From NCBI GenBank assembly GCA_025839675.1, contig CP104013.1:540001-572000 (forward strand): DNA of 32,000 nt. Direction: 5' to 3'. This document shows, piece by piece, positions 618-20,656 of the stretch (position 1 is its first letter; each line of letters opens with the position of its first letter). Origin of the DNA: Candidatus Lokiarchaeum ossiferum. GTDB lineage: Archaea > Asgardarchaeota > Lokiarchaeia > Sigyniarchaeales > Promethearchaeaceae. Under the pieces are notes generated by a model, which was not told where the DNA came from, searched no databases, and worked only from the letters and a program-made list of their open reading frames with translations. Position numbers and translations under genes: made by a program.

Positions 618-3600
618 AAATCCTATTCCAATTCCATTGTTATTTGGAGAAGCATACGAATTAGGTAATTATATGGGAATGCTTTCAGTTGTAGAAAGTA
701 TTAAGAATAAAAAGATGCTCTCGTTAAAAGCAAATGGAGATGTCTTTAATCCCATTGAAATTGACGTAGAATGCATTCAAGATTTTAGTATCCAATTTGA
801 GAGAATGTATGGAATAAATTTTATTGAACTAAAAGAGATCTTTGCTCGACTAAGACCTTTAGGAGAAACAATTTCAATTGAAGATCAACTTTTTCGATTT
901 AACTCGGATTTACATGAATTTGGAAAGACAATTGTTCACAGATCAGTTAAAAGTCGTAGTAATTTCGTCAAAGTATCCCAATCTGAAATAGAGATATTGA
1001 TTAAAGAATTAACAAATGAAATTAATGGAGTAAATTTTGTATTAGAAATTATTTCCGGTTTTTTTGATGGTCAATCGTTTGTTGAATGGTGTGAATTGCA
1101 ATTTCATGATGATTTTAACATTTTAATTGAAATGAATCTTTATGATGAGCAAAATCCAGAGAATCACGCAAAAAAACCAGATCTAATGGTAGTTCAAAAC
1201 AAAAAAGTGGTTTTAATCGGCGATATTAAATCATATTTTCCATTCATTAGACAAAATCGAACAAATCGGTTAAAAGATGCCTTAAATCAAATTCCGGTCG
1301 AAGGATTAAATAGTGAAATGTTAAAAGATTCATCATTTGTTCCTGAAGCCCTGTATTTGAATGATTTTGTAAAACGATATAATCTTTTGACCCGGTATTT
1401 TAAAATGATGATGTATGTTGAGATCATTTATCAAAATAGTGATGAACTCTTTCAACAGAATCCTTTATTTAGTATTGTTGTGCTTCCTGGAAAATCTGTA
1501 TTATTCCATTTCCAAAATTATTCCGATTTTGAAGAAAAACGCGAAATCCTCTTGAAAACAATTCCGTTTAAGATCAAAGATCCAAATTCTTGTGATTATG
1601 ATATAAAAGAAAAGATACTTAATGAGCATCAAGTTGATTTGGAATATGATTTATTAACAGGAGATAGATATATCGAACCAAATAATGAGAAAGGACAGTA
1701 TCTAATACGAGAAAGATACTATGATAGACCAGAAGACCTAACGATTCCCTTAGGTAAAATCCCCGTTTTTTCAGCAGCGGAAGAAATAAAAACAGCAATA
1801 GAACCTCCTATTGCTAAAGGATGGAAAGGTACACCTGTGTTAAATATTCAAACACTACATTTGAAGAAAATAATTAAAAAGTTAACACAGGAAAACTCAA
1901 AGTTCCACTGTATTATTGATGGATCAGACCAAGGAACAGGTAAAAATTTCTCGTTTGCTAAATATATCAAGTATCTTGATAATGAGGATATAGAACAATC
2001 TATTTTAATGGTCTGTCCTAGAAAAGACACGCTAAATGAAACGATTATTTCAATTTGCAATAATCTAGGTATTGAAGCACCTCACTTAGATGATTATGGA
2101 AATATTCAAGATTCAGAATTTAACCAAGGTAAGGTAAAAATTCGATTAATTCGTAGTGAATTTGGCCAACAAATCGTTTTCAACCAGAGAGGATGGATAA
2201 ACCAGAAATTTACTTACGGAGGGGAAGGCGCTACAAGTAAATTAAATAATTTGATAAAAACACCTAAATCTGGAATTGAAATCACATTTCTAACCGCTCA
2301 AACTTTACCCTTCTATTTTCGGTCCCATAAGCAACAGAAACTCCCCCTCCAACATTATAAAAAATTTTATCAAAGATTTGATTTAATCGTCTTTGATGAA
2401 CTTACCAATTCTCCTCCTTTAGTCAGAGAAGTGTTAATTGATTTAATTAATGGATATAAGCAAATCCAAACAAGAATTCCTAATATCATTCCAAAGATGC
2501 TAGTCTTGGATGCATCTATTACAAGTCCAGATTTATTTATTCAACAATTCAAACCTTTAATTTCTGCCGATTCAAAATTTTCAACGTTTTCGGAATATAT
2601 TCAAAGCTATGAAGAAAATCCAATTGAAGATGTTTTTGAAGAAGTTTTCATCAAACTTGATTATTTCAGGTATCAATTGAATCAATCTTTAATATATGGT
2701 TATTCTTCAATTGGGTGGCAAGATGACTATGTATCTATGCCGTTTGAAGAGATAAAAAACCAAATTCAAGAACAAATAACAATAATTCAAAAAAAATATT
2801 GGCCAAATTTCCCTGATTTCGATACATTACTACAACATGGGGAAGTGATGTTCTTTATTGATAACAAGTCTCTAATTGAAGAATTTAATGATTGGATTAT
2901 TGAATTGGGATATGATTGTGGAATTTCAATAGCTGAACAAAAAGAGAGAGCATTTTATGATTCAAAGAATATAATTGGGACAAATTCACTTGCTTTTGGG
3001 ACCAATTTCCCTTCCAAAAAATTAATGATCATAATACCTCCCTATCAAGGGACAGACTATTTCAAGTATCGACAAAATATCGAATTACTCCGACAGGTAA
3101 CCAAACGAATGCGAGGTTCTGATGAGAATGTTGACCGAATGGTAAGCTTTTTAGTTTTTCCTACTAAAGAGAACAATATAGATTTATCTCAGTCAGTATC
3201 GATTAATTTCTATAGAATAAGAAACAGCATCCGGGAATTCCTTTATCAGAAGAAATACCATCAGCTTCCATCATTTTCCTCATATCTGAATAATATTCCA
3301 AGCATAAATCCGAATTACGATACAAAATTAAGGAATTCTTCTATTTATACTCCCAAGGTTCCTTCATTTGGAATGAAGGATAAGAATCAAATAAGTTTAG
3401 AATTCTTTTTAGGAACCATTTTCCCTAAATTACGTGTTATTTTTTTAAAGTGGGGATTTCGCTGTCGAACGTCTTTTAAAATTGGCTTTAATAATGATAA
3501 ATATATTGGGCTACCTTTATCTAATTTCATCTGCTATACATTAGATAACCAGGATTTCTCACGTACTTTTCAAATCGAAGTCTATGCATCTAAAGCTCTT

Positions 3601-4212
3601 TCTGATTTGTCTAAATTGAAAAAATATTTGGCAAAAAATACTGCGGAAGTCAGAAATGATTTAGCGTTTGTATATAGAATGATGCAATGGCATAATCAAC
3701 ATGAAAAACAACCAAGTAAGGCTGCTTATAACATAATTGATAGAGAGATTAAAAATATTGAACAATCTGAAACAGATGGCAAAAAATGTCTAATATTATT
3801 TGCGCATTTCATCCAAAACCTATTCAATGTGAATTCGTTGCCGCTGTCTGGAACTGCATATTTACTCACATTGAACATTGCCGAAAAAACAAGTAATACT
3901 TTTGGTAATAATCTAAATATTTATCAGCAGATAAGCTATCAGAACAAGGAATATGTAAGTCAATTGTTTAAAATGACATCTCCTTTGAAATCATTATATT
4001 TTGGTGCAGGGAATTACTTTGAGCAACCTGTCTTAGTTAACATTGAGAAGAAAGGATTAACGACCGTTGGATACTTATGTCATTATCCAAATTTTGCTCA
4101 TTTTGATTTTTCCCAACCAAATTATCAATTATTGAAGTATTGCCTATTAAAAGAATTATACCGGGAGAACTATGTATATCTTCCAAATTTATTAAAAGGA
4201 TCTACTTTATAG
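592..4212 (+). CDS. PD-(D/E)xK nuclease-like N-terminal domain fused to a P-loop / SF2-helicase-like ATPase (1206 aa), family not recognised
   Basis: Uninterrupted 1206-aa ORF with AGAGG about 10 nt upstream of ATG 592. Nuclease-type signature 'KKPDLMVVQNKKVVLIGDIKSY' (P-D at nt 1177-1182, D-I-K at 1222-1230). P-loop 'DGSDQGTGKNFS' (nt 1933-1947). Walker B/motif II-like 'DLIVFDELTNS' (D-E at 2395-2400). Motif III-like 'MLVLDASIT'. A possible motif VI-like 'TKRMRGSDEN' lies further downstream. Confidence 0.75.
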   Translation: MQKEMNTNKNPIPIPLLFGEAYELGNYMGMLSVVESIKNKKMLSLKANGDVFNPIEIDVECIQDFSIQFERMYGINFIELKEIFARLRPLGETISIEDQLFRFNSDLHEFGKTIVHRSVKSRSNFVKVSQSEIEILIKELTNEINGVNFVLEIISGFFDGQSFVEWCELQFHDDFNILIEMNLYDEQNPENHAKKPDLMVVQNKKVVLIGDIKSYFPFIRQNRTNRLKDALNQIPVEGLNSEMLKDSSFVPEALYLNDFVKRYNLLTRYFKMMMYVEIIYQNSDELFQQNPLFSIVVLPGKSVLFHFQNYSDFEEKREILLKTIPFKIKDPNSCDYDIKEKILNEHQVDLEYDLLTGDRYIEPNNEKGQYLIRERYYDRPEDLTIPLGKIPVFSAAEEIKTAIEPPIAKGWKGTPVLNIQTLHLKKIIKKLTQENSKFHCIIDGSDQGTGKNFSFAKYIKYLDNEDIEQSILMVCPRKDTLNETIISICNNLGIEAPHLDDYGNIQDSEFNQGKVKIRLIRSEFGQQIVFNQRGWINQKFTYGGEGATSKLNNLIKTPKSGIEITFLTAQTLPFYFRSHKQQKLPLQHYKKFYQRFDLIVFDELTNSPPLVREVLIDLINGYKQIQTRIPNIIPKMLVLDASITSPDLFIQQFKPLISADSKFSTFSEYIQSYEENPIEDVFEEVFIKLDYFRYQLNQSLIYGYSSIGWQDDYVSMPFEEIKNQIQEQITIIQKKYWPNFPDFDTLLQHGEVMFFIDNKSLIEEFNDWIIELGYDCGISIAEQKERAFYDSKNIIGTNSLAFGTNFPSKKLMIIIPPYQGTDYFKYRQNIELLRQVTKRMRGSDENVDRMVSFLVFPTKENNIDLSQSVSINFYRIRNSIREFLYQKKYHQLPSFSSYLNNIPSINPNYDTKLRNSSIYTPKVPSFGMKDKNQISLEFFLGTIFPKLRVIFLKWGFRCRTSFKIGFNNDKYIGLPLSNFICYTLDNQDFSRTFQIEVYASKALSDLSKLKKYLAKNTAEVRNDLAFVYRMMQWHNQHEKQPSKAAYNIIDREIKNIEQSETDGKKCLILFAHFIQNLFNVNSLPLSGTAYLLTLNIAEKTSNTFGNNLNIYQQISYQNKEYVSQLFKMTSPLKSLYFGAGNYFEQPVLVNIEKKGLTTVGYLCHYPNFAHFDFSQPNYQLLKYCLLKELYRENYVYLPNLLKGSTL

Positions 4213-4218
4213 AAACTT

Positions 4219-4222
4219 GGAG
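4219..4222 (+). promoter_or_regulatory. Shine-Dalgarno-like GGAG upstream of ATG 4232
   Basis: GGAG lies 9 nt before ATG 4232, and 7 nt after the TAG stop (4210-4212) of the preceding ORF. Confidence 0.4.
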
Positions 4223-4231
4223 TTGAATTAT

Positions 4232-6163
4232 ATGAAAAATGACAAAAAAAAACAAAAATTGGAAAATAATGAAATCATAATCAGATCATGTGAATTAGAA
4301 ATCAATAATTTAGATGAATTCGAACAAATTGCTAATTTTTTTCAATCTTCAAGTTATGTTTTCCGAGGTTTATCAAATCATAAATATGAAATTACTTCAA
4401 AGTATGATCGTGCACGATTTAATACTGCAAAGTTAGATGCAACAAGAGCAACACCATATATTCTACAACATATTAAAAAATTGGTTCTAAACTTTAAAAA
4501 TATATTAGATGACGCAACGAATTCTTATTTAATTAATGATAAAATCAAGAAATTTTTAAAAGCATTAAATTCTTCTACAACAGATATATCTGATTCAGAG
4601 AAAAATCTTGCTTTACTTTGTTTACTTCAACATTACGGTTGTTCTACTCCTTTAGTTGATTTCACACGAAATATCAATATCGCCTTATATTTTGCTTGTT
4701 CTGATAAAATAAATGAAAATGGATGTATTTGGGTAGTAATGCCGTCTCGGCTTCTTTGGTCTTCAGGTCATCAAATGGTCACAGATACATGGGAAGAAAG
4801 TAATTCTCGTTTTTTTTCATTTAAAGATATTGCAAATTTAATATTCTTAGAGAATTCAAATTACCTTCATCGTCAAATTGCTTTAATAGATTTTAATCAA
4901 TTTTGCATTAACTATAATTTACCATCTTTTCCGAGAATTGAAAATCAAGAAGGAGTTTTTGGATTTGGACGAGCTGATGATAAATCTTTTTGGGAACAAT
5001 TTCAATCACATTCAATTTTTACTGCATTTGATACTGATAATAAAGAGGAAATTATGCAAATCCTTAATTCTCAACAAGAAAATCCGATTTTAATTGCGAA
5101 ACTAATCTTAACTACAGAATTTAAGAGAAATTGGTGGGAAACAAATAAAGAAAAATATAAAAAATATTGTAGTGTATTCTTATTCCCTGATCAACAAGGA
5201 ATTTTTATTGAAACAGATCTTCAAACGAAATTTTCATTTAGTTATATGGATCGAATCATTTCTGATAAAAGAAAGTATAAAAGATTACTTCAATCTATTT
5301 ATGGGAAAGATTTTACAGATAGAATTTTGAATTATAATATTAGGATAAAATCTGAAAATATCATATCAACTCTAAATAAATATTATAGAAATGATCAGAA
5401 AAGATGTATGAAATGTAAAGAATATTATAATCGATTAAATATAATTGAAAAACGGGATTTTTCACAACGCAATATGGATTTTCCAGCATGGTTAGGAAAT
5501 CTTGATTATACTTTGGAAAAAGGAAAACCTTATCGAAAGAACATTATGATTATTGGAGAAAGTGTTACATCAAAATTCAAAAATAAAAAAATGAAATCAG
5601 GTAATAATTTATCTAATAAGCGAATAAATAATATATGTTTTGAATTAGGAACCATTACTAAAGATTTCTCAGAATCGAATGATCCCGAAGACTTGATCTC
5701 TATTTCCGTCTTCTGGGCGAAAATCCAAGAAATGTTTCAAATCCATTCTCCTGAATTTCTAAATAATTTTTATCTCACAGATGTGGGGAAATGTGATTGT
5801 AATAAGAATCATTATATGTTATTTACATGCGGTATGAATTATCTGCTAAAAGAAATTAAATTTATCCATCCAAAGATTATTTTAATTATGGGAAGAAGAG
5901 CACAAAGGCTTTTTCTTTCCCTATTAAGTTTTGATTCACAGGTAAAATCAATCAAATATGATAATAAAAATTTACCCGCTCTATCTTATTTTAAACCAAA
6001 TATGAAAAAACCTGTGAAAGGTGAATTTAGCTATTTGAAAAATCTTGAAAATCCAATTCATTTTCTTTGCGTCCCACATACTTCATCTGCGAATAACAAA
6101 TTTAAAGATTGGAATCAAATTGGCGATTTCATCAGACAACAATATAGTTTTAATTTTCATTAA
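4232..6163 (+). CDS. FRG-domain protein with C-terminal uracil-DNA-glycosylase-superfamily (family 4/5-like) domain
   Basis: The ORF is open from TTG 4217. ATG 4232 sits 9 nt after GGAG (4219-4222) and is preferred as the start. FRG hallmarks: 'YVFRGLSNHKYE', 'LLQHYGCSTPLVDFTRNINIALYFAC', 'PRIENQEGVFGF'. C-terminal UDG-like pattern: CxxC 'RCMKCKEY', motif-A-like 'IMIIGESVT' (G-E-S at nt 5555-5563), 'LTDVGKCDC', 'LKEIKFIHPKIILIMGRRA', and motif-B-like 'LCVPHTSSANN' (nt 6073-6087). Confidence 0.8.
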   Translation: MKNDKKKQKLENNEIIIRSCELEINNLDEFEQIANFFQSSSYVFRGLSNHKYEITSKYDRARFNTAKLDATRATPYILQHIKKLVLNFKNILDDATNSYLINDKIKKFLKALNSSTTDISDSEKNLALLCLLQHYGCSTPLVDFTRNINIALYFACSDKINENGCIWVVMPSRLLWSSGHQMVTDTWEESNSRFFSFKDIANLIFLENSNYLHRQIALIDFNQFCINYNLPSFPRIENQEGVFGFGRADDKSFWEQFQSHSIFTAFDTDNKEEIMQILNSQQENPILIAKLILTTEFKRNWWETNKEKYKKYCSVFLFPDQQGIFIETDLQTKFSFSYMDRIISDKRKYKRLLQSIYGKDFTDRILNYNIRIKSENIISTLNKYYRNDQKRCMKCKEYYNRLNIIEKRDFSQRNMDFPAWLGNLDYTLEKGKPYRKNIMIIGESVTSKFKNKKMKSGNNLSNKRINNICFELGTITKDFSESNDPEDLISISVFWAKIQEMFQIHSPEFLNNFYLTDVGKCDCNKNHYMLFTCGMNYLLKEIKFIHPKIILIMGRRAQRLFLSLLSFDSQVKSIKYDNKNLPALSYFKPNMKKPVKGEFSYLKNLENPIHFLCVPHTSSANNKFKDWNQIGDFIRQQYSFNFH

Positions 6164-7293: not shown

Positions 7294-7516
7294 TACACAC
7301 AGTTAAAATAGAACCCTTTAAGAAAACATTTACTACCTAATTAATAGCAATCGTTGATAGTGATTCCTATGAATTAACCATCATAATACCAAAATCCATT
7401 TGAATGATAAGAGAGAAATAAGAAATTAGATGATCTAAATAATTACGACATTAAATCTCAGGAAATTATGTTTATATAGATCAGCTCCTTCTTTTTTTCT
7501 ATCAAAGTGATTAATT

Positions 7517-10500
7517 ATGGTCAAAGTCTTCTCAGAAATTGGATCAAATAAAATTAGTAAACAACATAAGAAAATTATCAGATGGATGGAACAATCATCC
7601 GAATTTAAGGATGCTGTTGTATTTTTAGAATTTCGATTTCATGGATTTGGATCTCGAGATGTGGATATACTTGTTTTACTAAATGATCGGATTCATTTGA
7701 TTGAATTGAAAGGACACACATTTACAGATATTCCAATGAATGGGAAGTGGCAATTTTATGATCATAAAACTCATCAAAAAAAAGAATACCCTCCTGAGGG
7801 GAGGAGAAATCAAGAAACGCCATATCAACAAGCGATTAATACTGCAAATTCATTAAAGAAATGGATTCAAAATCATTGTAATGAGCTAACTGGTGAGCTC
7901 GCTGATAGCATAAACATTCAAAACTTCTTGAAATCTGAAGAAGAATTTGATATATTTCCAATTGTTTTCATTAATGATAATAAATTTTTGGACAAAAAGA
8001 AAATACAAGAACATCCTTGGTGTAAAATTTGTGTTGGGACTGCTCAATTGAAGAAGAAATTAAAAAGAAAATATGATACAAGTGTGAAACTAGACTCTAT
8101 CTTTTTTGAAGAAATGGCAGATATGTTCAATATTTCTGATCAAAAAAAATCCAAAAAGGGTAGAATTAATCAAACTCTAATAAAAATTCTCAGATATATG
8201 AAAAAGAATAACCCGAAATGGAAAGATCAAGAAATAATTAGGGATACTGTGTTTGAATCTGGTGAATGTCGTAAAGCAGAAGTAAGAAAAGCAATCAAAC
8301 GGGGAAAAAAAGAAAATATTATATTCCAATCGAGTGAAGGCTTGATATTGAATGAACTGTTTAGTAAACTAATTAATCTTCAAAAATCTTCAGAAAGTGC
8401 TTATAAAGAATGGGAACATATTACTTTGCTATCAATATACCAGAGAAATGGCCCTGAACTTTTCAAACTCTACGTAGATCATATTTATGGAAATCCAGTG
8501 GATTTAACTGCACAAGATCAGATGATAAAATCAAACCAAATTTTATCTTCTATCCAAATTATCCCTGGTAATCTTTTATATTATCTTTTTAGTGAAGAAA
8601 TTCAATATAATTCCCCATCTCCTTCAGGTTTTTTCCGATCAGGAGGTATAATTCACTGTGATATCCAAGATCAAAACTACGCTCCGTTCATCGATAAAAC
8701 AGGATTTGAAATGAGTCAACTATTGGCACAAAAATTACGCTCTGGTAAAATAGTAGGAATCGTTGGTGCAGCTGCATCAGGAAAGTCTACATTAACTCGT
8801 CTTATTGGGTTCCAATTGTTAGAAATGCAAAAATCGGTTATTTATTTCACACCTTCTGATTTTAATGATGAAATTGTTCATCGTATTATAGAATATGAAG
8901 GAAACGCCGAAAAAGACGAAAATTCCGAAATATACATAATTTGTGAAAATATTCACTTGTTTTCTGATGTTCAAGCCCAAAATTTGGTTAAGATTATATC
9001 AAAAGCCCATTCTTCTCGTTTTCTTGTTACAAGTCGATATATTGGTGACACCTTTTTGGAAAAAATTCCTACAAAAATCAAAGATAAGAATAGGATAGAC
9101 ATTATTGATTTAGATGATGAGGCACAAATCTTGCAACGATATGAAGGATTAACCAGAACTTTTCTTCAATATAAGTTTTCACAGATTACAGGAAAACAGA
9201 TAGATCAAGTTGTCAAATACATTCTTAAAAATTCCACTAAGGTTGTTTCACTTATTCAAATTGAATTACTTTCAATTGTAGATGTTAAAAATATTAAGGA
9301 ATTGACGAATAGATGGCTCTCTCCTAGTTTTCATAACCAATATTTTGAATCTACTTTAGAAAAATATGTAGAATCAAAGATCTCAACACTTATAGATGAA
9401 AATAGTAATAAAGAAGAAGAAATTAGAACCTTATTATATTGCATTGTAGTTTTTGCATCCCTTGAGATCCCTCTAAGACAAGATTTGCTTGTCACAATCA
9501 GTCAAATTAATCCTGAGAGTATCTATGAATATTTTACACAATGGGAATCTTTGAATGAATTCCAACTAAATGAATATGCAGATATATGCCTTCATCCGGT
9601 ATTAGCGCAAAAGATCTTAGACATTCTACCAAAAATTTCAGAAAATTGGAACTTTTTAGAAAGTAGTTTAATGAAATTACATGCTAAAACACCGGGATTA
9701 TCAATAAGTGATAAAGTCCGTCAAATTATTGTGGAAGAAGATCCCACCTTTTTAGGACAAATTCTCGGGAGTCAAGGAGAACGTTCTCCATTCTTAGATT
9801 TTCGTTCTATTGATATTAAACGTCTTGCCTTCTATTTTGATACCATTTCTTTTGAGGAATTTGTCGAAATTATTAGAATTGTTCGGTATTATAACCCATA
9901 TTGGTCTCAATTGCGATGGAATGAGTTATTTGAGTTATTGACCATCCCAAATATAATTGAAATGATATTAGAATGTGAGTCGATTCAATCTCTATTAAGT
10001 TTCTTAAGAATACTAGACGAATCCAGATGGCCTGGTTTTTGGGAAATAATTGACTCCTTATCGGTTGATTTTCTTATCGATCTATTTGATGAGGAGTTCG
10101 ATGATGCAGATCGATCATTACGACAACTCAGACAGTGGGGATATCCTAAAATCAATTATCTCGAATACCAAATTGTATTTGATGCGGTATTTAGAATGAT
10201 AGAAAATCAAAGAAATAGACAATATTGGAGAATTCCCTTTGTAATCACTGAACCTGCTTTTTCAACCATTCAAAATATGGATGTAGATTCATTAATTCAA
10301 AATAAACTTAAAGCGGATTGGTTGAGCTTTACAAAATTTATTGAATTCATTGATACTAACGCTGCACGTCTCCATTGTGATAACAATCTCCGCGGAAAAA
10401 TGATCAACAATGTTTTATCCGACAATCTTCAGAGATATGACATTGATATGTATTGCACGGCATTAAGGTTGATAAAAAGCACCGGTTCTGATCAAAATTC

Positions 10501-12208
10501 TGAGGTAAAAGAAATATTAGAAAATACAGATTATAACACCTTGCGTGAGAATTTCTTACAGTTGGACGCAAGTTGGCTTAAATTTTATATTTCCCTAACA
10601 ATTAAATTCGAGATCCCTGAAATAGTCGATTTTCTGCATGGATTCTCTTTGCAAGACATCATCCAAATTTGGAATAATCCAAGAAATGAGGAAGAAGGGC
10701 AGAATTACTTGGATGAATTTTTGGTAAAATTACATGAAGTTCAATGGCCATATTTATCTGAGTTTATAGAATCTTTTGGACTGGATTATTATTCTCAAAG
10801 ATTAGCTGCAGAAAACATTACAAAAAAACCTGAAGAATTCTATGATTCACGTCTTCTGTGGTTTCTTTTAACACATGAATGGCCATCAAAAAATCTTTTT
10901 ATCGACCATTTTGATTTTATGACATTTGTACAAAATGAGAATGCCCATGCAGCTATCCATTTGTTAGAATTAATTGCACCTATTAATCTTTCAAATTTCA
11001 TTAACTTAGTAAAAGAGCTTTTTTTAAAGGTATTCTATGAAGAGAGGCATTTTGATTTACATTATGTAATTAAATATTGTATCGATGAAAAGATCCCATG
11101 GACAGAATGGGTTGATATTCCCTATATTATTAATGAAACAGAACAGGATACTCGTGAATCCAAAAGATTAATTGAAATCTTAAAGGAATCCGGATGGGAA
11201 CTCCCAGAACAAGTTAATCTTCTCCTTAAGCAACAAGATTCAAAGAAAAAACAAGACCATTTAAATCGGTTAAGTTCTATTTGGAAAGCCAATTATTATT
11301 TGGAGAATGGTCAGCAAGAAAAAGGTATAGAAATATATAAAAATACCATCAATGAAAGCAATATGAAGGGAAATATAGATAAAGCCATTAGAATAATTGA
11401 TGGATTAAAAAGAATCGACTCAAAAATTAAAGCAAATCTCGCTAATCTCATCTCAATTGAACTTTTCCAATCGGCTCATATTAAGGTAGAAGATCAATTC
11501 CATGATGTAGGACATTTATTGAAACGCTTAATTGATAGTGGACATTCACAAATTCCTGAAATTCTTTATGAAATTTTCATTAGAATGTCTCCAAAAAATA
11601 CAAATAAATTAGTGGAAATCATCTTGAGATATTGTTCATTAGAGCAATATTATGAAAATCTATGGCATTTATTATGGAAACATCAGAAATATGAATACTT
11701 GAATGGTTTGACGGATAAATTTGATGGGATAACTGCAAAAAATCAAAATGTAATAGAACCGAAACTTTTCATCGAATTGTTGGATAATTGGTTTCTTTGG
11801 GAAATGTATCTCCGGATTTGTATTTACGTTAATGAAGATTCTTCCCAAAAAGAACAATCACTTTTAGACAGTCTTTTCTCGGATAAGCTATCCATCGAAA
11901 GACTTTTGGGACTAATTCATATCGAAAAACGGACAAAATCAAGTATCATTCAAAGATTATTTACGTTAGATCAATCGACTTTGTATGGAATCATATCTCG
12001 TTCCTCTCCGACATCTTTTATTCGATTTCTACAATTGATGCAGAGTAATTGCCCATATTCTAGTTATGCTGAATTTATTCATCGAATTGAAAACGAGAAA
12101 TGGGAAAACCTCTTTGAGAATCTCGATGATGAGATGAAAATGAGCGTCAAGATACTATTTATGAGTGTTGGTGTTTCAATTTTTGATAGTTTGGAAATCT
12201 ATGATTAA
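7517..12208 (+). CDS. NERD nuclease-domain / P-loop NTPase / long alpha-helical repeat protein (1563 aa; STAND/Avs-like tripartite layout)
   Basis: NERD-type pattern 'SRDVDILVLLNDRIHLIELKGHTFTDIPMNGKWQFY....ETPYQQAINTANSLKKWI' (nt ~7650-7870). Walker A 'GIVGAAASGKSTLTRLIG' (nt ~8755-8810). Walker B-like 'EIYIICENIHLF'. About 1000 aa of helical sequence follow, with recurring [LI]xx[LI]xxxxW[PGE] units. Confidence 0.75.
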   Translation: MVKVFSEIGSNKISKQHKKIIRWMEQSSEFKDAVVFLEFRFHGFGSRDVDILVLLNDRIHLIELKGHTFTDIPMNGKWQFYDHKTHQKKEYPPEGRRNQETPYQQAINTANSLKKWIQNHCNELTGELADSINIQNFLKSEEEFDIFPIVFINDNKFLDKKKIQEHPWCKICVGTAQLKKKLKRKYDTSVKLDSIFFEEMADMFNISDQKKSKKGRINQTLIKILRYMKKNNPKWKDQEIIRDTVFESGECRKAEVRKAIKRGKKENIIFQSSEGLILNELFSKLINLQKSSESAYKEWEHITLLSIYQRNGPELFKLYVDHIYGNPVDLTAQDQMIKSNQILSSIQIIPGNLLYYLFSEEIQYNSPSPSGFFRSGGIIHCDIQDQNYAPFIDKTGFEMSQLLAQKLRSGKIVGIVGAAASGKSTLTRLIGFQLLEMQKSVIYFTPSDFNDEIVHRIIEYEGNAEKDENSEIYIICENIHLFSDVQAQNLVKIISKAHSSRFLVTSRYIGDTFLEKIPTKIKDKNRIDIIDLDDEAQILQRYEGLTRTFLQYKFSQITGKQIDQVVKYILKNSTKVVSLIQIELLSIVDVKNIKELTNRWLSPSFHNQYFESTLEKYVESKISTLIDENSNKEEEIRTLLYCIVVFASLEIPLRQDLLVTISQINPESIYEYFTQWESLNEFQLNEYADICLHPVLAQKILDILPKISENWNFLESSLMKLHAKTPGLSISDKVRQIIVEEDPTFLGQILGSQGERSPFLDFRSIDIKRLAFYFDTISFEEFVEIIRIVRYYNPYWSQLRWNELFELLTIPNIIEMILECESIQSLLSFLRILDESRWPGFWEIIDSLSVDFLIDLFDEEFDDADRSLRQLRQWGYPKINYLEYQIVFDAVFRMIENQRNRQYWRIPFVITEPAFSTIQNMDVDSLIQNKLKADWLSFTKFIEFIDTNAARLHCDNNLRGKMINNVLSDNLQRYDIDMYCTALRLIKSTGSDQNSEVKEILENTDYNTLRENFLQLDASWLKFYISLTIKFEIPEIVDFLHGFSLQDIIQIWNNPRNEEEGQNYLDEFLVKLHEVQWPYLSEFIESFGLDYYSQRLAAENITKKPEEFYDSRLLWFLLTHEWPSKNLFIDHFDFMTFVQNENAHAAIHLLELIAPINLSNFINLVKELFLKVFYEERHFDLHYVIKYCIDEKIPWTEWVDIPYIINETEQDTRESKRLIEILKESGWELPEQVNLLLKQQDSKKKQDHLNRLSSIWKANYYLENGQQEKGIEIYKNTINESNMKGNIDKAIRIIDGLKRIDSKIKANLANLISIELFQSAHIKVEDQFHDVGHLLKRLIDSGHSQIPEILYEIFIRMSPKNTNKLVEIILRYCSLEQYYENLWHLLWKHQKYEYLNGLTDKFDGITAKNQNVIEPKLFIELLDNWFLWEMYLRICIYVNEDSSQKEQSLLDSLFSDKLSIERLLGLIHIEKRTKSSIIQRLFTLDQSTLYGIISRSSPTSFIRFLQLMQSNCPYSSYAEFIHRIENEKWENLFENLDDEMKMSVKILFMSVGVSIFDSLEIYD

Positions 12209-14072: not shown

Positions 14073-16952
14073 GTGACTGCCAGACAGCGTCTTTGGCGGA
14101 TAGATCAAATCCATTTTGATGAAAACCAAGAATTCTATTATTACTCAGTAAGTAATGTTTCAGGGGTACCTTCTAATGAAGTACTCTTTCCTAGCATTGA
14201 ATCGATTAAAAAAAGTGAAATACCTCCTCCCGCAAAAGATAAATTAGGTTCTCCTCGATATCAACAACTCCTACTACAAGCACTCCGATTAGATTTAATT
14301 TATGGCACAACTTCTTTTATCAGCCTTCAAAATTCAAAAGTAATCCCCATTTCATATCAAATGGTTCCTGTTCTCATGGCGCTGAATATGAAAAAGGTGC
14401 GTTTACTTTTAGCCGATGATGTAGGTCTTGGTAAAACCGTAGAAACGGGACTTATTTTACAGGAATTATTAGGACGGAAACGAATTAATCGTGTGCTTTT
14501 TGTAACTCCGGCGAATCTTCGGGAGCAATGGCAAACTATTCTTCGTAATTTCTTTGGAATAGATGCCGTTATTATGTCTCGTCGTAATCGACGTCATCTG
14601 GAATCGGAATTATTAGTAGGAGGTAGTCCTTGGGGATACTACAATTTTGTGATTACATCTGTAGATTATGCCAAACAACTTGATGTACGCAGCGAAATAA
14701 TGCAATTTAATTGGGATATGGTAGTAATGGATGAAGCCCATAACATTATGATGCCACACGGAGGGGTAGATGATGTTGATAATAAAAACATTAAAAAAAG
14801 TTATTTATTTGCCCGTCAATTGACCGAAAAATATCCTCACCTTTTACTATTAACCGCGACTCCTCATAATGGCTATAAAGATTCATATACAAGCTTATTG
14901 AAGATGGTTAATCCCAATATTATTGAAGAGGTTGATACCGAAATTGAGATTGACAAAGATTTGGCAATTAACCATGTCTGCCAACGTCGAAGACATGATG
15001 TGGAACAATGGATCGGGGATCGCTATGAAAAAAGTCCATTTCCAGAACGCGATTCTGATGAGATTTTCATCACTCCTTCAGACCAATTCCACCATACTAT
15101 GGAAAAACTCTCTAAATTTGCGAATTATGTTATGAATTACGTAAATAAACTCACCACTGAAGATAATCAACGCAGTTATTGGACAATCTTACACTTTTTC
15201 AAACGTGCAATCAGTTCACCGGAAGCATTAATATGTTCTATTGATAATCGAAATGATGAAATAGATAAAAAATTAAATGAAAAACATCAAGCGATTGAAA
15301 ATTTAACACAGTTCCTTTCGATAGAAGAAGCCGGGCAATCAGTATTAGATGGTGCAGAAACCGATCGAATTTCGGAGGAAGAACGAGATATTCGAAACGA
15401 TCGAATTGTTTTAGCACAATCAATGGATTTATTATCCCAAGAAAAGGGTTTATTACTTGAGGTACAGGTAGAAGCGGAGAAATTAAAGAAAAAAGACAGA
15501 AAAGTGGATGAACTTATCAATGAAATTATTCCTAATTTATTAAAGAATTCCAAAAAAGTCATTCTATTCACCCGATATATCGACACGTTGAAATATATTC
15601 ACCAAAATCTCAAAGAAACCATAGATAGCGGATCGTTGCGATATAAAGGAATGGATCTCTTTTATGTGCATGGGCAACTCCCATCTCAAAAACGTATGGA
15701 AATTTATGACGATTTCTTAAAAAATCCTGCAGCGATTTTAATCTCCACGGATTGTATGGCAGAAGGGATTGATTTGCAATTTTCTGCCAATCAAATCATC
15801 AACTATGAATTGACCTGGAATCCGAACCGGCTTGAACAAAGGAATGGACGGGTGGATCGATTCGGACAACCGGAACCAAAGGTGTTCATCCGCACCTTGA
15901 TCATGAAAGACACGATTGAAATGGATATATTAGAATTACTTGTTAAAAAAGCTCAGAATATTAAAGAAGAATATGGATTTGTCCCCGGGTTTTTCGGAGA
16001 TCCAAAGGATATAATTGATCGCTTGACGAAAAGACGGAAAGAAAAACTAAAACCACAAGCAACTTTGGATAGCTATTTGAAATTAACTCCTAGAATAATG
16101 GATGATTTGGTCTCGACTTTCTACAATAAAGAAAATCTGGAAGAAATTCTGAAAGATTCATTTTACGGTCATAATAATATTGATTTACAAGAGATTGAAC
16201 ATCGGATGCAGATGAGTCAAGAAAAAATCGGTTCAAGCGCCACGATATTTGCATTCTTAAAATCTTCAGTGCAACTCTATAAAGGGAATCTAACTCAAGC
16301 TAAAGAAAACGAACATATTTTTGAGGTGCAATTACCACCCGAAATACTACATGATCTCAATGTAGAGGTGGAGGGCCCAATTCGGGTGACACAAAATATG
16401 AATCTTGGTGCTACACGAAAAGATGTTGATGCTTTGAGCTTAAAAAATGCTTTAATTGCTGGATTAATTGAAAAGGTAAAAAATGAAGCTTTTATTGAAG
16501 AAAAACAATTTTACGGTCGAACTGCAGCATTTACGTCTACACATGCCGAAACGGTAAAAGCAATATATCATCTGAAAATCCGGTATTATATAAACACTGA
16601 TCCACCGAGTATCACTGAAGAGATTACCACATTGGGTATAGATTTATTTTCTGAAGATATCTTAACCGAAAAGTCTATCAATCAAATAATCTCCGGTGAA
16701 ATGAATAATGCGGGGAAACCTGATGCATTTGTATTAAAACATATTGCCAAAGCATTAGAAAATACTGATCTGGAAATAAAATTTGAAGATCTTGCAAATC
16801 GACGAAAACAAGAATTGATTAATGAGCGTACTGATTTGATCCAACGATTACAGGAACAGGGTTTGACTGCAGATTTGCAGGGGATTTCAGATGTTAAAGT
16901 TGTGGGCACAGATCTTCTCACGATCGCTATAATCTATCCTCAAGGAGATTAA
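14073..16952 (+). CDS. drmD: SNF2-family helicase (DISARM DrmD-like)
   Basis: Motif I 'LLADDVGLGKTVETG' (nt 14425-14439). Motif II 'VVMDEAHN' (14730-14741). Motif III 'LLLTATPHNG'. Motif V 'STDCMAEGIDLQ'. Motif VI 'WNPNRLEQRNGRVDRFGQ' (~15838-15870). GTG 14073 is the first canonical start. The frame is open upstream to nt 14007 and encodes a plausible N-terminus ('SIPDFSIGEIVTARQRLWRI'), so the start is uncertain. Confidence 0.85.
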   Translation: MTARQRLWRIDQIHFDENQEFYYYSVSNVSGVPSNEVLFPSIESIKKSEIPPPAKDKLGSPRYQQLLLQALRLDLIYGTTSFISLQNSKVIPISYQMVPVLMALNMKKVRLLLADDVGLGKTVETGLILQELLGRKRINRVLFVTPANLREQWQTILRNFFGIDAVIMSRRNRRHLESELLVGGSPWGYYNFVITSVDYAKQLDVRSEIMQFNWDMVVMDEAHNIMMPHGGVDDVDNKNIKKSYLFARQLTEKYPHLLLLTATPHNGYKDSYTSLLKMVNPNIIEEVDTEIEIDKDLAINHVCQRRRHDVEQWIGDRYEKSPFPERDSDEIFITPSDQFHHTMEKLSKFANYVMNYVNKLTTEDNQRSYWTILHFFKRAISSPEALICSIDNRNDEIDKKLNEKHQAIENLTQFLSIEEAGQSVLDGAETDRISEEERDIRNDRIVLAQSMDLLSQEKGLLLEVQVEAEKLKKKDRKVDELINEIIPNLLKNSKKVILFTRYIDTLKYIHQNLKETIDSGSLRYKGMDLFYVHGQLPSQKRMEIYDDFLKNPAAILISTDCMAEGIDLQFSANQIINYELTWNPNRLEQRNGRVDRFGQPEPKVFIRTLIMKDTIEMDILELLVKKAQNIKEEYGFVPGFFGDPKDIIDRLTKRRKEKLKPQATLDSYLKLTPRIMDDLVSTFYNKENLEEILKDSFYGHNNIDLQEIEHRMQMSQEKIGSSATIFAFLKSSVQLYKGNLTQAKENEHIFEVQLPPEILHDLNVEVEGPIRVTQNMNLGATRKDVDALSLKNALIAGLIEKVKNEAFIEEKQFYGRTAAFTSTHAETVKAIYHLKIRYYINTDPPSITEEITTLGIDLFSEDILTEKSINQIISGEMNNAGKPDAFVLKHIAKALENTDLEIKFEDLANRRKQELINERTDLIQRLQEQGLTADLQGISDVKVVGTDLLTIAIIYPQGD
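16943..16947 (+). promoter_or_regulatory. Shine-Dalgarno AGGAG for the first methyltransferase gene
   Basis: AGGAG lies inside the last codons of the SNF2 gene, 11 nt before ATG 16959. Confidence 0.5.
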
Positions 16953-16958
16953 AGTTAG

Positions 16959-18803
16959 ATGGCATCACAAGCAAAATTATTACGAAATATTACCACTAAT
17001 GGAGGACTATTTACCGAAAATATTTTACTGAAATTACGGGATCGTCCCAATTCTAAGAATATTGGCAAAATAACTTATTTTTATTTTCCAGAAGAGATAG
17101 AAGAGATTCAAAAAACTGGAAATCCACCACAAACTCTCGATTCTCTTGAGATAAAGCAAAAACGGGAAAAGCTGAAATCCTTACAATCTTCTATTTTTAA
17201 TTGGGGACAACGTAAGTGGGAAGAAACATATCCTGATTTGGAATTAAATAAATTGGAAGATCCAGACATAGAAACAAAATGGTTGCTTCCTTTATTAGAA
17301 CAGATCGGTTATGAACTTGAGCCTTTTGACCGATCTTCTGATGATGGGACTGATACAGGGGTGTTAGGTGATTTTCAAATCAAATATCAAACAACAAATC
17401 CATCTATCCAATTGTTTTTTCATTTTGTTTGCCCTAATGATGATTTAGATAAAAAAATAAAAACAAATCCCAAACAACTTTCACATCATGATATTTGCCA
17501 GCAATATGTGAACTATCATCCAGATGTGAAATGGCTTATTCTTTCTAATGGTACTCAATTACGTCTCCTCTCTACATATTATTACTCATATTCTAAAGGT
17601 TATTTGGAGTTCAATCTAAAAGATATTTTTGGAGGAGATCTTCAGGAATTTTTAGTATTTTTTAATATATTGCATCCTTCTCGGTTTATAAAAATCGAAC
17701 CGGATAAACATTCACTTATTGAAGATTTTCAAGCAGAATCACAGGAAGAAGGTGTAAAAGTAGGAAATAATCTTCGAGATAATGTGCATAATGCAATCGA
17801 AACTCTAGGGAATCAGCTTATCCAACAAAATAACGAATTATATACAAATATTAAAAATGAAAAGATCAATTTACAAGAGTATTACGCCGAATTACTGCGA
17901 ATCATATACCGGATCATTTTCATTTTATATGCGGAGCAAAGAAATATGTTGCCCGGATCCGGAACGTTATATTTCAAAAATTTTTCCTTATCTTCCTTTC
18001 GGATGCTGGCAGAAAAACCAATTAAAAACGATTCCCAATCGGATTTATGGCAAAAACTTTTTGTTACTTTTCAACTAGTGAGAGATGGCAATAGTTTTAT
18101 GGGAATACCTTGTTTTAATGGAATCTTATTTGATAATACCAATTTGTCTATTTTATTTCCAGATGGTAAAGAAAAAGGTATTATATATTCAGTTTCAAAT
18201 GATATTACATTAGGGATCATCCGACTACTTACTACAGCCCAATTTGGAAACATTCGCCAACGCATCAATTTTATAGAAATTTCAGAGGAAGAAATTGGAG
18301 CTATTTATGAATCATTGCTTGAATATCGCCCAATATTTGATAAAAGAGGAAATTTTAATTTGGAATACGAATCTAATGAAAGGAAAGGTACCGGAACCTA
18401 TTATACTCCAAAAAATATAATTGATATCTTTATTAAAAATACGATAGAACCAAAAATTCGATTTATATTAGATGAACATGCTGGAAATCCACAGATACAG
18501 GAAAATGAAATAAGAAAATTAAAAATATGTGATCCTGCTTGTGGTAGTGGCACATTTCTTCTTTCAGTATTAGATTCTATGGGTGAACATTTAGCCAAAA
18601 TTCGTAGTCCAAATTCCTATCCAACTGAAATAGAATTAAGAAATGCACGACGTGAAATCTTACAACATTGCATTTATGGTGTCGATAAAAATCAACTTGC
18701 AGTGGAATTGTGTAAAATTTCTCTTTGGTTACGGGCATGTGTTAAGGATAAACCTTTGAATTTTCTCGATAATCATATTAAATGTGGAGATTCACTACTA
18801 GGT
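16959..18803 (+). repeat. Copy 1 of a ~1.85-kb diverged direct repeat (shared N-terminal half of the two methyltransferase genes)
   Basis: Aligns codon-for-codon with 20657-22503, from 'KLLRNITT.GGLFTENILL' to 'DNHIKCG.SL.G'. Long identical peptide runs are present (e.g. YYAELLRIIYRIIFILYAEQRNMLPGSGTLYFKNFSLSSFRM) despite many synonymous nucleotide differences. Confidence 0.85.
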
Positions 18804-20642
18804 ATTTTAGAAAAGAAAGAAAATTTAATGATTGAACCTACAAATTATAAAAATCTAAAGTGTAATCCTAATATCAAAAGGAAATTGATTCAACAATTAA
18901 AAAATGAGGTAAATTCTTTTAAAAAATCTAAAAATAAAATAGTACCTTTAACGAAATTCCTTGATTCTAATCAAATGGTTATATTCGACATAAAAAAATA
19001 TGAAAATATCAATAGTTTACCAGAAGATACAAAAGAAGATATTATTCTGAAAATGAGTAAATATAATCACTTACATGATGATCTTAATTTCAAAAAACTA
19101 AAACTAATATCAGATACGTGGATTTCGAGTTTTTTATGGTCAATTGATAAAAACATTAAGAGTATTGCAGATTTTTCTTATCCAAATAATATTTTGCTTG
19201 AAGAAATTAAATTAGGAAAAATATATAAGAGAAATAATTCTGAAGACACTTCTCAAATTAGTAAAATTCAAAAAATGGCAAAAAAAGAGAAGTTCTTTCA
19301 TTGGTATTTGGAATTTCCTGAAATTTTTAATAAACCTAACAAAGGCTTTGATTTTATTTTATCAAATCCACCATATGTCGAATCTCGTGGAATACCTGAC
19401 TATTATTGGAATTGGTTACGACTTCACTACAAGAGTTCATATAAAAAGTTTGATCTCTCGGTTGTTTTTCTCGAAAGGATCGTTCAGTTATTGAAACCTA
19501 ATGGAAAAGCAGCTATAATAACTTCAAATAAATGGTTAGTTGCAGATTATGGTTTGAAAATAAGAGAAATATATTTAAAAGAAACTAAAATTGAATCTAT
19601 TTATGACATCTCCCATTTAAATGTATTTTCTGAAGCCGATACTTATCCTATTATCATATTTGTTACTAAACCAGAATTAATTTCAAAGATTGAAGGAAAA
19701 GATACTTACTTATTCAAGCCTTCATCATTTAAAGAATTGTGGAATAATGATTATAAAAAAGAAAAATATGCGATCTCTCAAGGTTTTTTTGAAAGATTTC
19801 CTAATATTATATTTCCAACTACTATAGAACCTAAAAACATTATGTTATTAACCCACATTTGGAATTTACTTCCAAAATTTGCTTTTCTTCTTGGTGGACT
19901 AAATAGTCCATATGTTCTGAAAAAAGGAATACATACAGGCAATATAAAAGAAAAATTAATCTTAAAAAATCCATCTGTTATTCATGATTCGTTTAAGAAA
20001 TTAATTACAAGCCGAGAAAAAGTGGACAGATATCATTTTTCTTGGGAAGGATATTACGTTAATTATGATCCGAGTATTATTAAAAAGGAAAATGGAGAAT
20101 ATGGTAGCTTAAGAGAAAAATGGATATTTGAAAGTAATCCAAAAATTTTCATTAAATTATTTGGGAAGCGCATACAAGCGGCTTTAGATTCTGAAAAATA
20201 TTATGCTAATAATTCTATTATTATAGTTGTAAAAAACAATAATGAATCTAAAGAAAACTCAGATGAAATATTATCCATAAATAATGAATTTTATTATCTT
20301 ATAGGCATATTGAATTCTGATTTGATTTCAGTATTTTACAAAATAATATTTCATCATACTCATGTTCGAGGAGATTTTCTCCAATATTATATCAAAGATT
20401 TGGAAAATATTCCAATTATAAAGCCATCCACAGAAAATATTGAAACTGTTATTAAAATTGGAAAAATTGCAAAAAAGTTAATTAAATTATATATTACTGT
20501 AGAGATTAATAAAGATAAAATCCAAATCTTAGAAGATGAGTTGAATAATTTAATACATATTTTGTATAAGTTAGAACAATTAAATTTGGGTTCATCATGG
20601 AATGAATTAAAAAATCAATTCCTAGATTATATTGATTTTTAG
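16959..20642 (+). CDS. drmMI: N6-adenine DNA methyltransferase, Eco57I/type IIG-like, NPPY type (DISARM DrmMI-like), paralogue 1
   Basis: 1227 aa. SAM motif I 'KICDPACGSGTFLL' (nt 18531-18551). 'FFHWYLEFPEIF'. Catalytic motif IV 'ILSNPPYVESRG' (N-P-P-Y at 19365-19376). 'LLKPNGKAAIITSNKWL'. TaqI-C-like specificity signature 'YYLIGILNSDLISVFY'. The N-terminal ~610 aa are paralogous to the next ORF. Confidence 0.85.
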   Translation: MASQAKLLRNITTNGGLFTENILLKLRDRPNSKNIGKITYFYFPEEIEEIQKTGNPPQTLDSLEIKQKREKLKSLQSSIFNWGQRKWEETYPDLELNKLEDPDIETKWLLPLLEQIGYELEPFDRSSDDGTDTGVLGDFQIKYQTTNPSIQLFFHFVCPNDDLDKKIKTNPKQLSHHDICQQYVNYHPDVKWLILSNGTQLRLLSTYYYSYSKGYLEFNLKDIFGGDLQEFLVFFNILHPSRFIKIEPDKHSLIEDFQAESQEEGVKVGNNLRDNVHNAIETLGNQLIQQNNELYTNIKNEKINLQEYYAELLRIIYRIIFILYAEQRNMLPGSGTLYFKNFSLSSFRMLAEKPIKNDSQSDLWQKLFVTFQLVRDGNSFMGIPCFNGILFDNTNLSILFPDGKEKGIIYSVSNDITLGIIRLLTTAQFGNIRQRINFIEISEEEIGAIYESLLEYRPIFDKRGNFNLEYESNERKGTGTYYTPKNIIDIFIKNTIEPKIRFILDEHAGNPQIQENEIRKLKICDPACGSGTFLLSVLDSMGEHLAKIRSPNSYPTEIELRNARREILQHCIYGVDKNQLAVELCKISLWLRACVKDKPLNFLDNHIKCGDSLLGILEKKENLMIEPTNYKNLKCNPNIKRKLIQQLKNEVNSFKKSKNKIVPLTKFLDSNQMVIFDIKKYENINSLPEDTKEDIILKMSKYNHLHDDLNFKKLKLISDTWISSFLWSIDKNIKSIADFSYPNNILLEEIKLGKIYKRNNSEDTSQISKIQKMAKKEKFFHWYLEFPEIFNKPNKGFDFILSNPPYVESRGIPDYYWNWLRLHYKSSYKKFDLSVVFLERIVQLLKPNGKAAIITSNKWLVADYGLKIREIYLKETKIESIYDISHLNVFSEADTYPIIIFVTKPELISKIEGKDTYLFKPSSFKELWNNDYKKEKYAISQGFFERFPNIIFPTTIEPKNIMLLTHIWNLLPKFAFLLGGLNSPYVLKKGIHTGNIKEKLILKNPSVIHDSFKKLITSREKVDRYHFSWEGYYVNYDPSIIKKENGEYGSLREKWIFESNPKIFIKLFGKRIQAALDSEKYYANNSIIIVVKNNNESKENSDEILSINNEFYYLIGILNSDLISVFYKIIFHHTHVRGDFLQYYIKDLENIPIIKPSTENIETVIKIGKIAKKLIKLYITVEINKDKIQILEDELNNLIHILYKLEQLNLGSSWNELKNQFLDYIDF

Positions 20643-20645
20643 GAG
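20641..20645 (+). promoter_or_regulatory. Shine-Dalgarno AGGAG for the second methyltransferase gene
   Basis: AGGAG overlaps the TAG stop of paralogue 1 (20640-20642) and lies 11 nt before ATG 20657. Confidence 0.5.
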
Positions 20646-20656
20646 TTAACAAATCA

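Follow-up and report, generated by a model that had tools for sequence, protein, structure and literature searches.

We have analysed a stretch of 32,000 nucleotides of the genome of Candidatus Lokiarchaeum ossiferum B35 (contig CP104013.1, positions 540,001 to 572,000; hereafter "the window"), focusing on a single gene, which encodes a protein of 1563 residues that we refer to as "the target". From its N-terminus to its C-terminus, the target consists of a nuclease module of the NERD family, a predicted winged helix, an NTPase with homology to the signal transduction ATPases with numerous domains (STAND) and a long α-solenoid, the presumed sensor. A promoter-like element, with a probable B recognition element (BRE) and TATA box, precedes the gene, and the window is a defence island. 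The features of the gene and of its neighbourhood are listed in Table 1; those marked AF2 come from AlphaFold 2 models, and their confidence is given as the predicted local distance difference test (pLDDT).

Table 1. Coordinates of the target gene, its conserved elements and its neighbours (window positions, except for the copies of the promoter-like element, which are given on their own loci).
Feature	Residues	Position (nt)	Strand	Remarks
Promoter-like element GAAATTATGTTTATATA, probable archaeal BRE and TATA box		7462-7478	+	ends 38 nt before the ATG
Copies of the element at other family loci		L001 ~2500; L005 10018-10034; L006 9938-9954; L007 2946-2962; L008 ~2185-2201; L130 ~1645-1661		
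Complete open reading frame of the target	1563 and stop	7517-12208	+	ATG start; NERD, winged helix, STAND NTPase, α-solenoid
NERD (PD-(D/E)xK) nuclease module	18-210	7568-8146	+	catalytic E38, D50, E63-x-K65, Q105; core nt 7628-7711
Predicted winged helix-turn-helix	215-280	8159-8356	+	three helices, then a β-hairpin; AF2 model
Helical linker	281-370	8357-8626	+	pLDDT <50 at residues 322-340 and 365-370
Pre-P-loop FFRxxGxxxxDI (372-383) and nucleotide-binding domain		8627-9121	+	
Walker A GAAASGKST	417-425	8765-8791	+	G417, G422, K423 invariant
Walker B YIICEN	473-478	8933-8950	+	E477 invariant
Sensor-1 LVTSR	503-507	9023-9037	+	T505, R507 invariant
STAND helical and winged-helix domains	536-730	9122-9706	+	
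MHD-like H693-P694 in CLHPVLAQKIL		9587-9619	+	both invariant
α-Solenoid, presumed sensor	731-1563	9707-12205	+	~55 helices; AF2
ResIII-like large helicase protein	1206 aa	592-4212		no PADLOC match
FRG and uracil-DNA-glycosylase-like (FRG-UDG) fusion	648 aa	4217-6163		PADLOC candidate PDC-S15, E 1e-18
ArdC-N / zincin MPTase-PolyVal protein	354 aa	6229-7293	-	divergent, upstream of the target
CBS-domain protein	282 aa	12689-13537		no evident link to the target
Same-strand four-gene cluster		14073-30109		DrmD-like SNF2 helicase, two methyltransferases, DruE-like DEAD helicase
HSDR_N-type domain protein (type I R subunit N-terminal PD-(D/E)xK)	301 aa	30344-31249		right after the DruE-like helicase

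The reading frame of the target is intact. At the ~32% G+C of the window, stops are expected at ~8% of codons, and a stop-free run of 1563 codons would arise by chance with a probability of ~1e-57, given the base composition of the window; the identical protein, residue for residue, has been called on three independent assemblies, and the full-length relatives (1555-1584 residues) align with it over its entire length. The first-pass annotation, made from the sequence alone, had described this same frame and had quoted three of its motifs: the NERD string DVDILVLLNDRIHLIELKGH occurs at residues 48-67, and the Walker A and Walker B-like motifs occur at the positions given in Table 1. It had also proposed a C-terminal helical array of ~1000 residues; in the AlphaFold models the protein is indeed helical throughout after residue ~535, but the repeat array proper spans ~830 residues, because residues 536-730 belong to the helical and winged-helix subdomains of the STAND module.

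The relatives of the target were collected by an exhaustive HMMER search with a two-sequence profile against 1.84 billion cluster representatives (E <= 1e-3), which recovered 43 proteins: six full-length relatives of 1555-1584 residues (P0001-P0003 and P0005-P0007), one shortened relative (P0004), several fragments, and further matches that cover the NERD region only or the NTPase region only. The family is therefore tiny, with about eight full-length members among the representatives searched. All eight long sequences can be aligned over their whole length, with 18-29% identity to the target, and their loci are all low in G+C (27-36%). Each named member comes from Lokiarchaeum or from a metagenome-assembled genome (MAG) of Promethearchaeota, the lineage formerly called Asgard, i.e. 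every named member is from an Asgard archaeon. Word-indexed searching performs poorly for this AT-rich family, and it was the exhaustive HMMER search that found the relatives: among 5.8 billion proteins, the word index returned one relative, and with alignment A1 it returned nothing. Scans of genome contigs in which the target and P0002 served as queries found no relatives, and tblastn against plasmid and phage collections gave no match.

One of the relatives, P0002, is WP_371805704.1, annotated as "ATP-binding protein [Candidatus Lokiarchaeum ossiferum]" and encoded on CP163304, which belongs to strain B36 (bioRxiv 10.64898/2026.02.13.705702). The strains B35 and B36 have an average nucleotide identity of 97.2%, yet their family members are 29% identical and lie in different neighbourhoods; judging from these comparisons, the two are strain-variable genes rather than positional orthologues. 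In a member from a Promethearchaeota MAG (L129 672-4516), the frame is shifted near residue 370 and the last ~300 residues are gone; 4.7 kb without called genes follow, and this may be a decaying copy or an assembly error.

The Pfam NERD profile (PF08378) matches residues 19-120 of the target at 26.9 bits, above the gathering score of 22.1, and all eight family members are matched when they are searched one by one (best E 4.9e-9). In the full-length alignment, residues E38, D50, E63, K65 and Q105 are invariant in 8/8 members, and the equivalent residues are invariant in the four NERD-STAND proteins from other clades; the N-terminal NERD domain named by the first-pass annotation is thus borne out both by Pfam and by the catalytic residues that the alignments retain. 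In the AF2 model, these residues are located on strands 34-40, 48-55 and 58-65 and on the long helix that comes next, within an α/β core, a modelled placement such as one expects in a PD-(D/E)xK nuclease.

The NERD module of the target aligns with the N-termini of P0014, P0018, P0016 and P0043 over 180 columns (hhalign 99.8%, E 2.8e-30), and the architectures of these four proteins are, by Pfam, NERD+NACHT, NERD+NPHP3_N and NERD+AAA_22+TPR. Since the same module heads NACHT, NPHP3_N and AAA_22-TPR STANDs, it behaves like an effector module that can be swapped, and in the alignments this NERD subtype recurs at the N-terminus of STAND NTPases from several clades. The NERD-only relatives of the family profile come from MAGs of Odin- and Heimdallarchaeota. 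In comparative work, NERD has been proposed to act as a suicidal DNase co-effector (PMC10853773).

Between the NERD module and the NTPase, an extra winged helix is predicted to be inserted: the AF2 model places helices at 216-231, 239-245 and 253-265 and strands at 269-272 and 275-278, with a pLDDT of ~75-84. Residues G215 and A259 of this region are invariant across the family, and residues 215-280 have no Pfam match.

The STAND class, as reportedly defined by Leipe et al. in 2004, comprises a P-loop core of five parallel strands with a Walker A motif GxxxxGK[ST], a Walker B motif of the form hhhhD[D/E] and an arginine that closes strand 4 (sensor 1), together with helical and winged-helix domains whose MHD-like histidine touches the bound nucleotide, C-terminal repeats, an N-terminal effector and nucleotide-dependent oligomerisation. 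A T(S/T)R sensor-1 motif and a histidine directly after the wing of the winged helix are hallmarks of STAND proteins (NB-ARC, NACHT), with the histidine typically located ~270 residues past the Walker A lysine (278 in Apaf-1, 268 in NLRC4). In the target, H693 is located 270 residues past the Walker A lysine K423, just after a wing-like loop, and the TSR motif aligns with the TTR of NACHT and the (G/T)SR of nSTAND5 proteins. Further invariant residues of the NTPase in the family alignment are R374, D382, I383 and H480. The AF2 model has five parallel strands in the core (412-416, 440-444, 472-476, 500-506 and 527-531), followed by the all-helical residues 536-730 with a low-confidence wing at 682-690. 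At the second position of the Walker B motif, seven of the eight members have Asn and P0001 has Asp; in the nSTAND5 relatives the motif reads DD.

The sole relatives that the family profile finds at the NTPase level, among the 1.84 billion representatives, pass the Pfam cut-off for nSTAND_NTPase5 (34 bits): P0032, P0034 and P0040 score 65, 52 and 45 bits. Comparing the whole family with these nSTAND5 proteins gives an hhalign match of 98.9%, and the cut alignments give 99.2% (E 2.6e-19) over 295 collinear columns. The aligned columns start at the pre-P-loop motif FFRxxGxxWxDI, take in Walker A, Walker B and TSR, and end at His693, which is paired with the histidine of the nSTAND5 "YHSSLA". The NTPase core also matches the NACHT domain of the NERD-NACHT proteins (94.2%, E 1.1e-7). 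When the members are matched one by one, nSTAND3 is found in 7/8, nSTAND5 in 5/8 and ABC_tran in 1/8, with P0001 scoring 21 bits for nSTAND_NTPase5. By profile-profile comparison, then, the target is homologous to nSTAND_NTPase5 (PF25199) and is not a formal Pfam member; the placement of its NTPase inside the STAND class, as the first-pass annotation had it, is largely supported by these comparisons, with the nSTAND5/nSTAND3 group as the closest. The N-terminal model has an AAA+/STAND-class fold according to Foldseek, with MalT at rank 2 and the SIR2-STAND protein EfAvs5 at rank 3. Sequence searches of the Protein Data Bank (PDB), with the single sequence and with the profile, returned ABC/AAA matches at the level of the P-loop only, which did not help in the classification.

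The C-terminal sensor is an all-α solenoid with a mean pLDDT of 82, i.e. the helical array that had been proposed does appear when it is modelled with AlphaFold. Foldseek finds only generic solenoids for it (Ctr9, the karyopherins Kap121/114, SF3b155 and Ski3; E >= 1e-4, TM <= 0.27), and the region has neither a Pfam match nor a Pfam repeat family. No other part of the protein varies as much within the family: the sensor has a mean pairwise identity of about 18-25%, compared to 35% for NERD and 32% for the NTPase. Its invariant residues are few and, apart from one Asn, all hydrophobic, which is more in keeping with a binding scaffold that evolves rapidly than with an enzyme. Within the sensor, hhalign detects a weak three-fold duplication, spaced at ~240 residues, and pairs residues 812-882 with 1276-1349 (88%) and residues 796-862 with 1031-1101 (75%); the duplicated segments (~796-882, 1031-1101 and 1276-1349) correspond to window positions 9950-11600. 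A recurring helix-start motif, "W-P-x-h-x-x-h-h...", has been noticed in the sensor by eye in the translation.

The promoter-like element upstream of the target is part of a block that recurs in the family. The 15-mer of the element occurs once in the 32-kb window, and the block, (G/A)AAAT(T)ATGTTTATATA, 16-17 nt in length and nearly invariant, ends 38-47 nt before the conserved MVK start of the family members; it is found at seven independent family loci, with a diverged copy (13/16) at an eighth, and it is kept though the proteins are at most ~30% identical and their neighbours differ. The flanking sequences of the remaining TTTATATA boxes in 96 kb are unrelated. A metagenome scan for the 16-mer gave at least 120 AT-rich loci, and among the matches listed none encodes a family member. 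The element probably serves as a BRE/TATA promoter, perhaps combined with an operator, and accompanies the gene from locus to locus; it may be specific to the family or the generic strong promoter of Lokiarchaea. A second, semi-conserved block, GACA(n2-4)AAATCT, is located ~10 nt further upstream. In WP_371805704.1, the annotated start is 26 codons upstream of the conserved MVK and the element falls inside this extension (L005 10001-10078); translation probably begins at the Met at L005:10079.

An own promoter-like element, together with upstream neighbours that are divergent or distant, indicates from the gene layout that the target is a monocistronic gene, and no neighbouring gene is conserved across the family loci that we have examined. 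Two candidate partners were considered and rejected: an open reading frame of 94-106 residues that overlaps the stop codon of the target (12165/12201-12485), which has no family matches and is not conserved elsewhere, and an obligate OLD/GajA partner, which is found in just 2/8 loci. Public assemblies list the former as a gene, but it is probably spurious. Scans for tRNA genes, Rfam families, promoters and terminators added nothing.

Within the defence island, the ResIII-like helicase and the FRG-UDG fusion form a same-strand run (592-6163), next to another gene (72-617) that runs off the left end of the window, and at locus L002 an additional gene of 1051 residues precedes the pair; the run may be an uncharacterised multi-gene defence system. 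The product of the ArdC-like gene is similar to anti-restriction factors from conjugative elements, a hint that a mobile element includes, or once included, the island. The four-gene cluster downstream, which resembles a DISARM/Druantia hybrid and carries the label "R-M with a putative DrmD" in the literature on B35, comprises a DrmD-like SNF2 helicase of 959 residues (E 6e-103), two tandem N6-methyltransferases (type IIG/DrmMI-like; 1227 and 1366 residues) and a DruE-like helicase of 1783 residues (E 3e-115). The G+C content rises to 0.39-0.42 between 25 and 30 kb of the window, compared to ~0.30 elsewhere, and this rise suggests that the helicase gene there has been acquired horizontally; the HSDR_N-type protein that follows the DruE-like helicase may be the nuclease component of the same system.

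Across the family, the gene is mostly placed among defence genes. Two of the relatives adjoin a GajA/OLD-like gene, i.e. an ATPase-nuclease of the GajA/OLD family just upstream (L007 797-2788, E 5e-35, and L005 6784-8679); at L007 this gene and the family gene share a strand and are 222 nt apart, and the short contig shows no GajB-like gene. The two genes may have come together by chance, within defence islands, or may now and then function as a pair. Further genes next to relatives are a Dsr1-like fragment, a PDC-S60-like phosphoesterase, a PIN gene, a weakly JetC-like four-gene cluster and a TniQ gene. The latter encodes a TniQ-domain protein, a Tn7-like target selector (L130 355-1614), and ends 85 nt upstream of P0007, which suggests that some copies of the family ride on Tn7-like elements.

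From the architecture of the target and from its context, we infer an antiviral function with a nuclease that is activated by oligomerisation: in the reading that we favour, and that we consider probable, the target is a single-protein antiviral STAND (Avs), i.e. an innate immune sensor of Ca. L. ossiferum B35 similar to receptors with nucleotide-binding and leucine-rich-repeat domains (NLR receptors). By analogy with Avs3, Avs4 and Avs7, the α-solenoid of the resting protein would be folded back on the NTPase, with the subdomains closed and the NERD domain sequestered; a protein of a virus or of another mobile element would then bind the solenoid and open the switch, ATP binding would drive the oligomerisation of the NTPase modules, and the oligomer would gather the NERD PD-(D/E)xK domains into an active DNase, possibly with the help of the adjacent winged helix on the DNA. 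The DNase would degrade DNA and the infection would be aborted. A more specific form of this proposal, which we put forward tentatively, as somewhat doubtful in its full extent, is that the family consists of Lokiarchaeia-restricted NLR-like receptors, in which a triplicated solenoid recognises a protein of Asgard viruses and unleashes the NERD DNase, the whole being a self-contained promoter/operator cassette that is exchanged between strains.

Several observations weigh against the target being an antiviral sensor of this type. The Avs-like layout proposed by the first-pass annotation is largely supported by the NERD module, the STAND homology and the helical array, but no Avs/AVAST model (types 1-5) of PADLOC-DB v2 is matched at E <= 0.1, and Foldseek finds no solved Avs sensor for the solenoid. 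The target alone scores below the threshold for nSTAND_NTPase5 (19.4 bits, E 1e-3, with a cut-off of 34), and likewise for nSTAND3; its helical and winged-helix region alone scores just 3% in hhalign, which is not significant; and Foldseek, which cannot separate STAND from AAA+ proteins, gives Yta7, RFC, ORC and DnaA scores close to those of MalT and Avs5. The Walker B motif is hhhhE-N instead of the canonical hhhhD-D/E, and nucleotide hydrolysis may, for this reason, be weak or absent. The frameshifted relative is located near a tRNA synthetase gene, which is not an obvious defence island. Finally, the nuclease activity of NERD domains in general is, to our knowledge, poorly documented biochemically.

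The alternative that survives best, although we consider it unlikely, is that the target is a STAND protein with a non-immune role, i.e. a regulator similar to MalT or AfsR, or a DNA-repair or chromatin factor, in which the NERD domain and the winged helix would be DNA-binding and the ligand of the solenoid would be a cellular one. STAND clades often switch between defence and non-defence roles (PMC13581612), and the rank of MalT in Foldseek, the predicted winged helix and the one locus without an obvious defence island speak for this alternative; against it, the NERD catalytic residues are strictly conserved, and the DNA-binding domain is not terminal, unlike that of MalT/LuxR-type regulators. 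The family is, moreover, rare, patchy and strain-variable, with defence or mobile-element genes close by in at least five loci and no conserved target operon.

It is also improbable, in our judgement, that the gene serves a mobile element as cargo or as a maintenance module (for addiction, exclusion, or as a transposon helper ATPase) rather than an antiviral sensor of the host. The ArdC-like anti-restriction/zincin gene directly upstream on the opposite strand, the TniQ gene next to P0007, the weak match of IstB_IS21 to 2/8 members and the promoter-like element that accompanies the gene all point in this direction, while no transposase, integrase or terminal repeats have been found to travel with the gene, its neighbours differ at every locus, and the IstB-like matches are confined to the P-loop; since defence genes are commonly cargo of this kind, this explanation largely overlaps with an antiviral sensor. 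The ABC, IstB and helicase readings of the NTPase have all been rejected, as the corresponding matches are confined to the P-loop and to a minority of the members.

That the NTPase belongs with the ordinary AAA+, ABC or helicase-type ATPases and resembles STAND superficially is very improbable: its best sequence matches among solved structures are the Walker A regions of ABC proteins, it matches ABC_tran at E 2.5e-4, its best PADLOC match is AbiLi and AAA+ proteins make up most of the Foldseek list, but these sequence matches span just ~50 residues at and around the P-loop, Walker A is followed by Walker B after only 47 residues, without an LSGGQ signature, there is no second RecA-like domain in a protein that is helical from residue 535 to its end, the sensor-1 arginine is present in TSR, the nSTAND5 alignment stays collinear through the winged-helix histidine, and ABC_tran is matched by a single member where nSTAND3 is matched by seven.

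Taken as an antiviral STAND, the target is outside the Avs families that are modelled in PADLOC v2, where its best matches (AbiLi, mad3, mad8 and PglW) are limited to the P-loop or to the NERD region. Its closest characterised relative is Avs5, because of the nSTAND3-type NTPase and the Foldseek match to EfAvs5; the NTPase of Avs5 is Pfam nSTAND3 (bioRxiv 10.1101/2025.07.08.663546). Like the SIR2-STAND proteins of Avs5 (EfAvs5, PDB 9jap, and PaAvs5), the target is the product of a single gene with a tripartite arrangement of effector, NTPase and helical-repeat sensor; nSTAND3 is matched by most of its family, as noted above, and the Foldseek match to EfAvs5 has an E of 1.1e-6 over 438 columns. 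In contrast to Avs5, the target has a NERD domain instead of a SIR2 NADase, an inserted winged helix, a sensor that has no solved relative and an archaeal host, and its family profile is nearer to nSTAND5 than to nSTAND3 proteins.

With Avs3, Avs4 and Avs7, the target shares an N-terminal DNase domain of the PD-(D/E)xK superfamily, a STAND switch and a large α-helical sensor, and, by analogy, it would likely share the sequence of ligand binding, oligomerisation and nuclease assembly (PMC13581612). In apo Avs3 and Avs7, the Cap4 PD-(D/E)xK domains are kept sequestered, and ligand binding makes these domains tetramerise (PMC13581612). The nuclease domains of Avs3, Avs4 and Avs7 are, however, of the Cap4 or Mrr kind, and the target differs in the NERD branch of its nuclease and in its nSTAND5/3-like NTPase, with no match of its sensor in sequence or fold. 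The nSTAND_NTPase5 proteins P0032, P0034 and P0040 have in common with the target the FFRxxGxxWxDI motif, Walker A, the hhhh(D/E)xxHL motif, (T/G)SR and the winged-helix histidine; they differ from it in the lack of a NERD head and in a Walker B of D-D, compared to E-N in the target.

The similarity to the NERD-STAND proteins P0014, P0018, P0016 (MFW9994273.1, from Odinarchaeota) and P0043 is located at the opposite end: they share the NERD subtype over ~190 residues, with identical catalytic residues, and the order of NERD, STAND and repeats, whereas their NTPases are NACHT, NPHP3_N or AAA_22 and their sensors (TPR in P0043) and lengths differ. NERD also occurs as a nuclease or co-effector in Mokosh type I, Nhi-like proteins, PglW (BREX type 2) and DndF variants (PMC10952713; PMC10853773), and the PglW matches to the NERD region of the target are weak; in these defence proteins, the partner of NERD is a helicase, a kinase or a Dnd ATPase, where the target has a STAND switch with a repeat sensor.

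In our literature search, no paper was found to link NERD to Avs or STAND. The databases clearly do contain NERD+NACHT architectures, however, as the Pfam assignments of the sequences above show. A survey by Lee et al. (2026) covers 589 STAND clades, 198 defence-associated STAND clades and the families Avs6-21 (PMC13581612); its main text mentions neither NERD nor Asgard (PMC13581612), and its 589-clade census may already include the family of the target.

STAND/NLR receptors are the best example of an innate immune logic that is common to bacteria, archaea, plants and animals, and functional work on STAND proteins has so far been almost all bacterial. The tripartite logic of the target is exactly what the field expects and, in this respect, the result is not conceptually surprising; what it would add to the Avs repertoire is a NERD head, which is unnamed in the Avs literature that we have searched, an inserted winged helix and a sensor fold without a solved relative, in a family that is unannotated, Lokiarchaeia-restricted and equipped with a novel sensor. 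The target is absent from the published census of strains B35 and B36, which is based on PADLOC and DefenseFinder, i.e. a cultured Asgard archaeon carries nuclease-headed STANDs that this census has missed; because neither the census nor the standard tools report NERD-STAND genes, the "defensomes" of Asgard archaea are under-counted. Both cultured strains of Ca. L. ossiferum carry different members of the family, a virus of Lokiarchaea has been brought into culture, and the divergence of the B35 and B36 members, together with this virus, offers a concrete route to testing how Asgard archaea sense their viruses.

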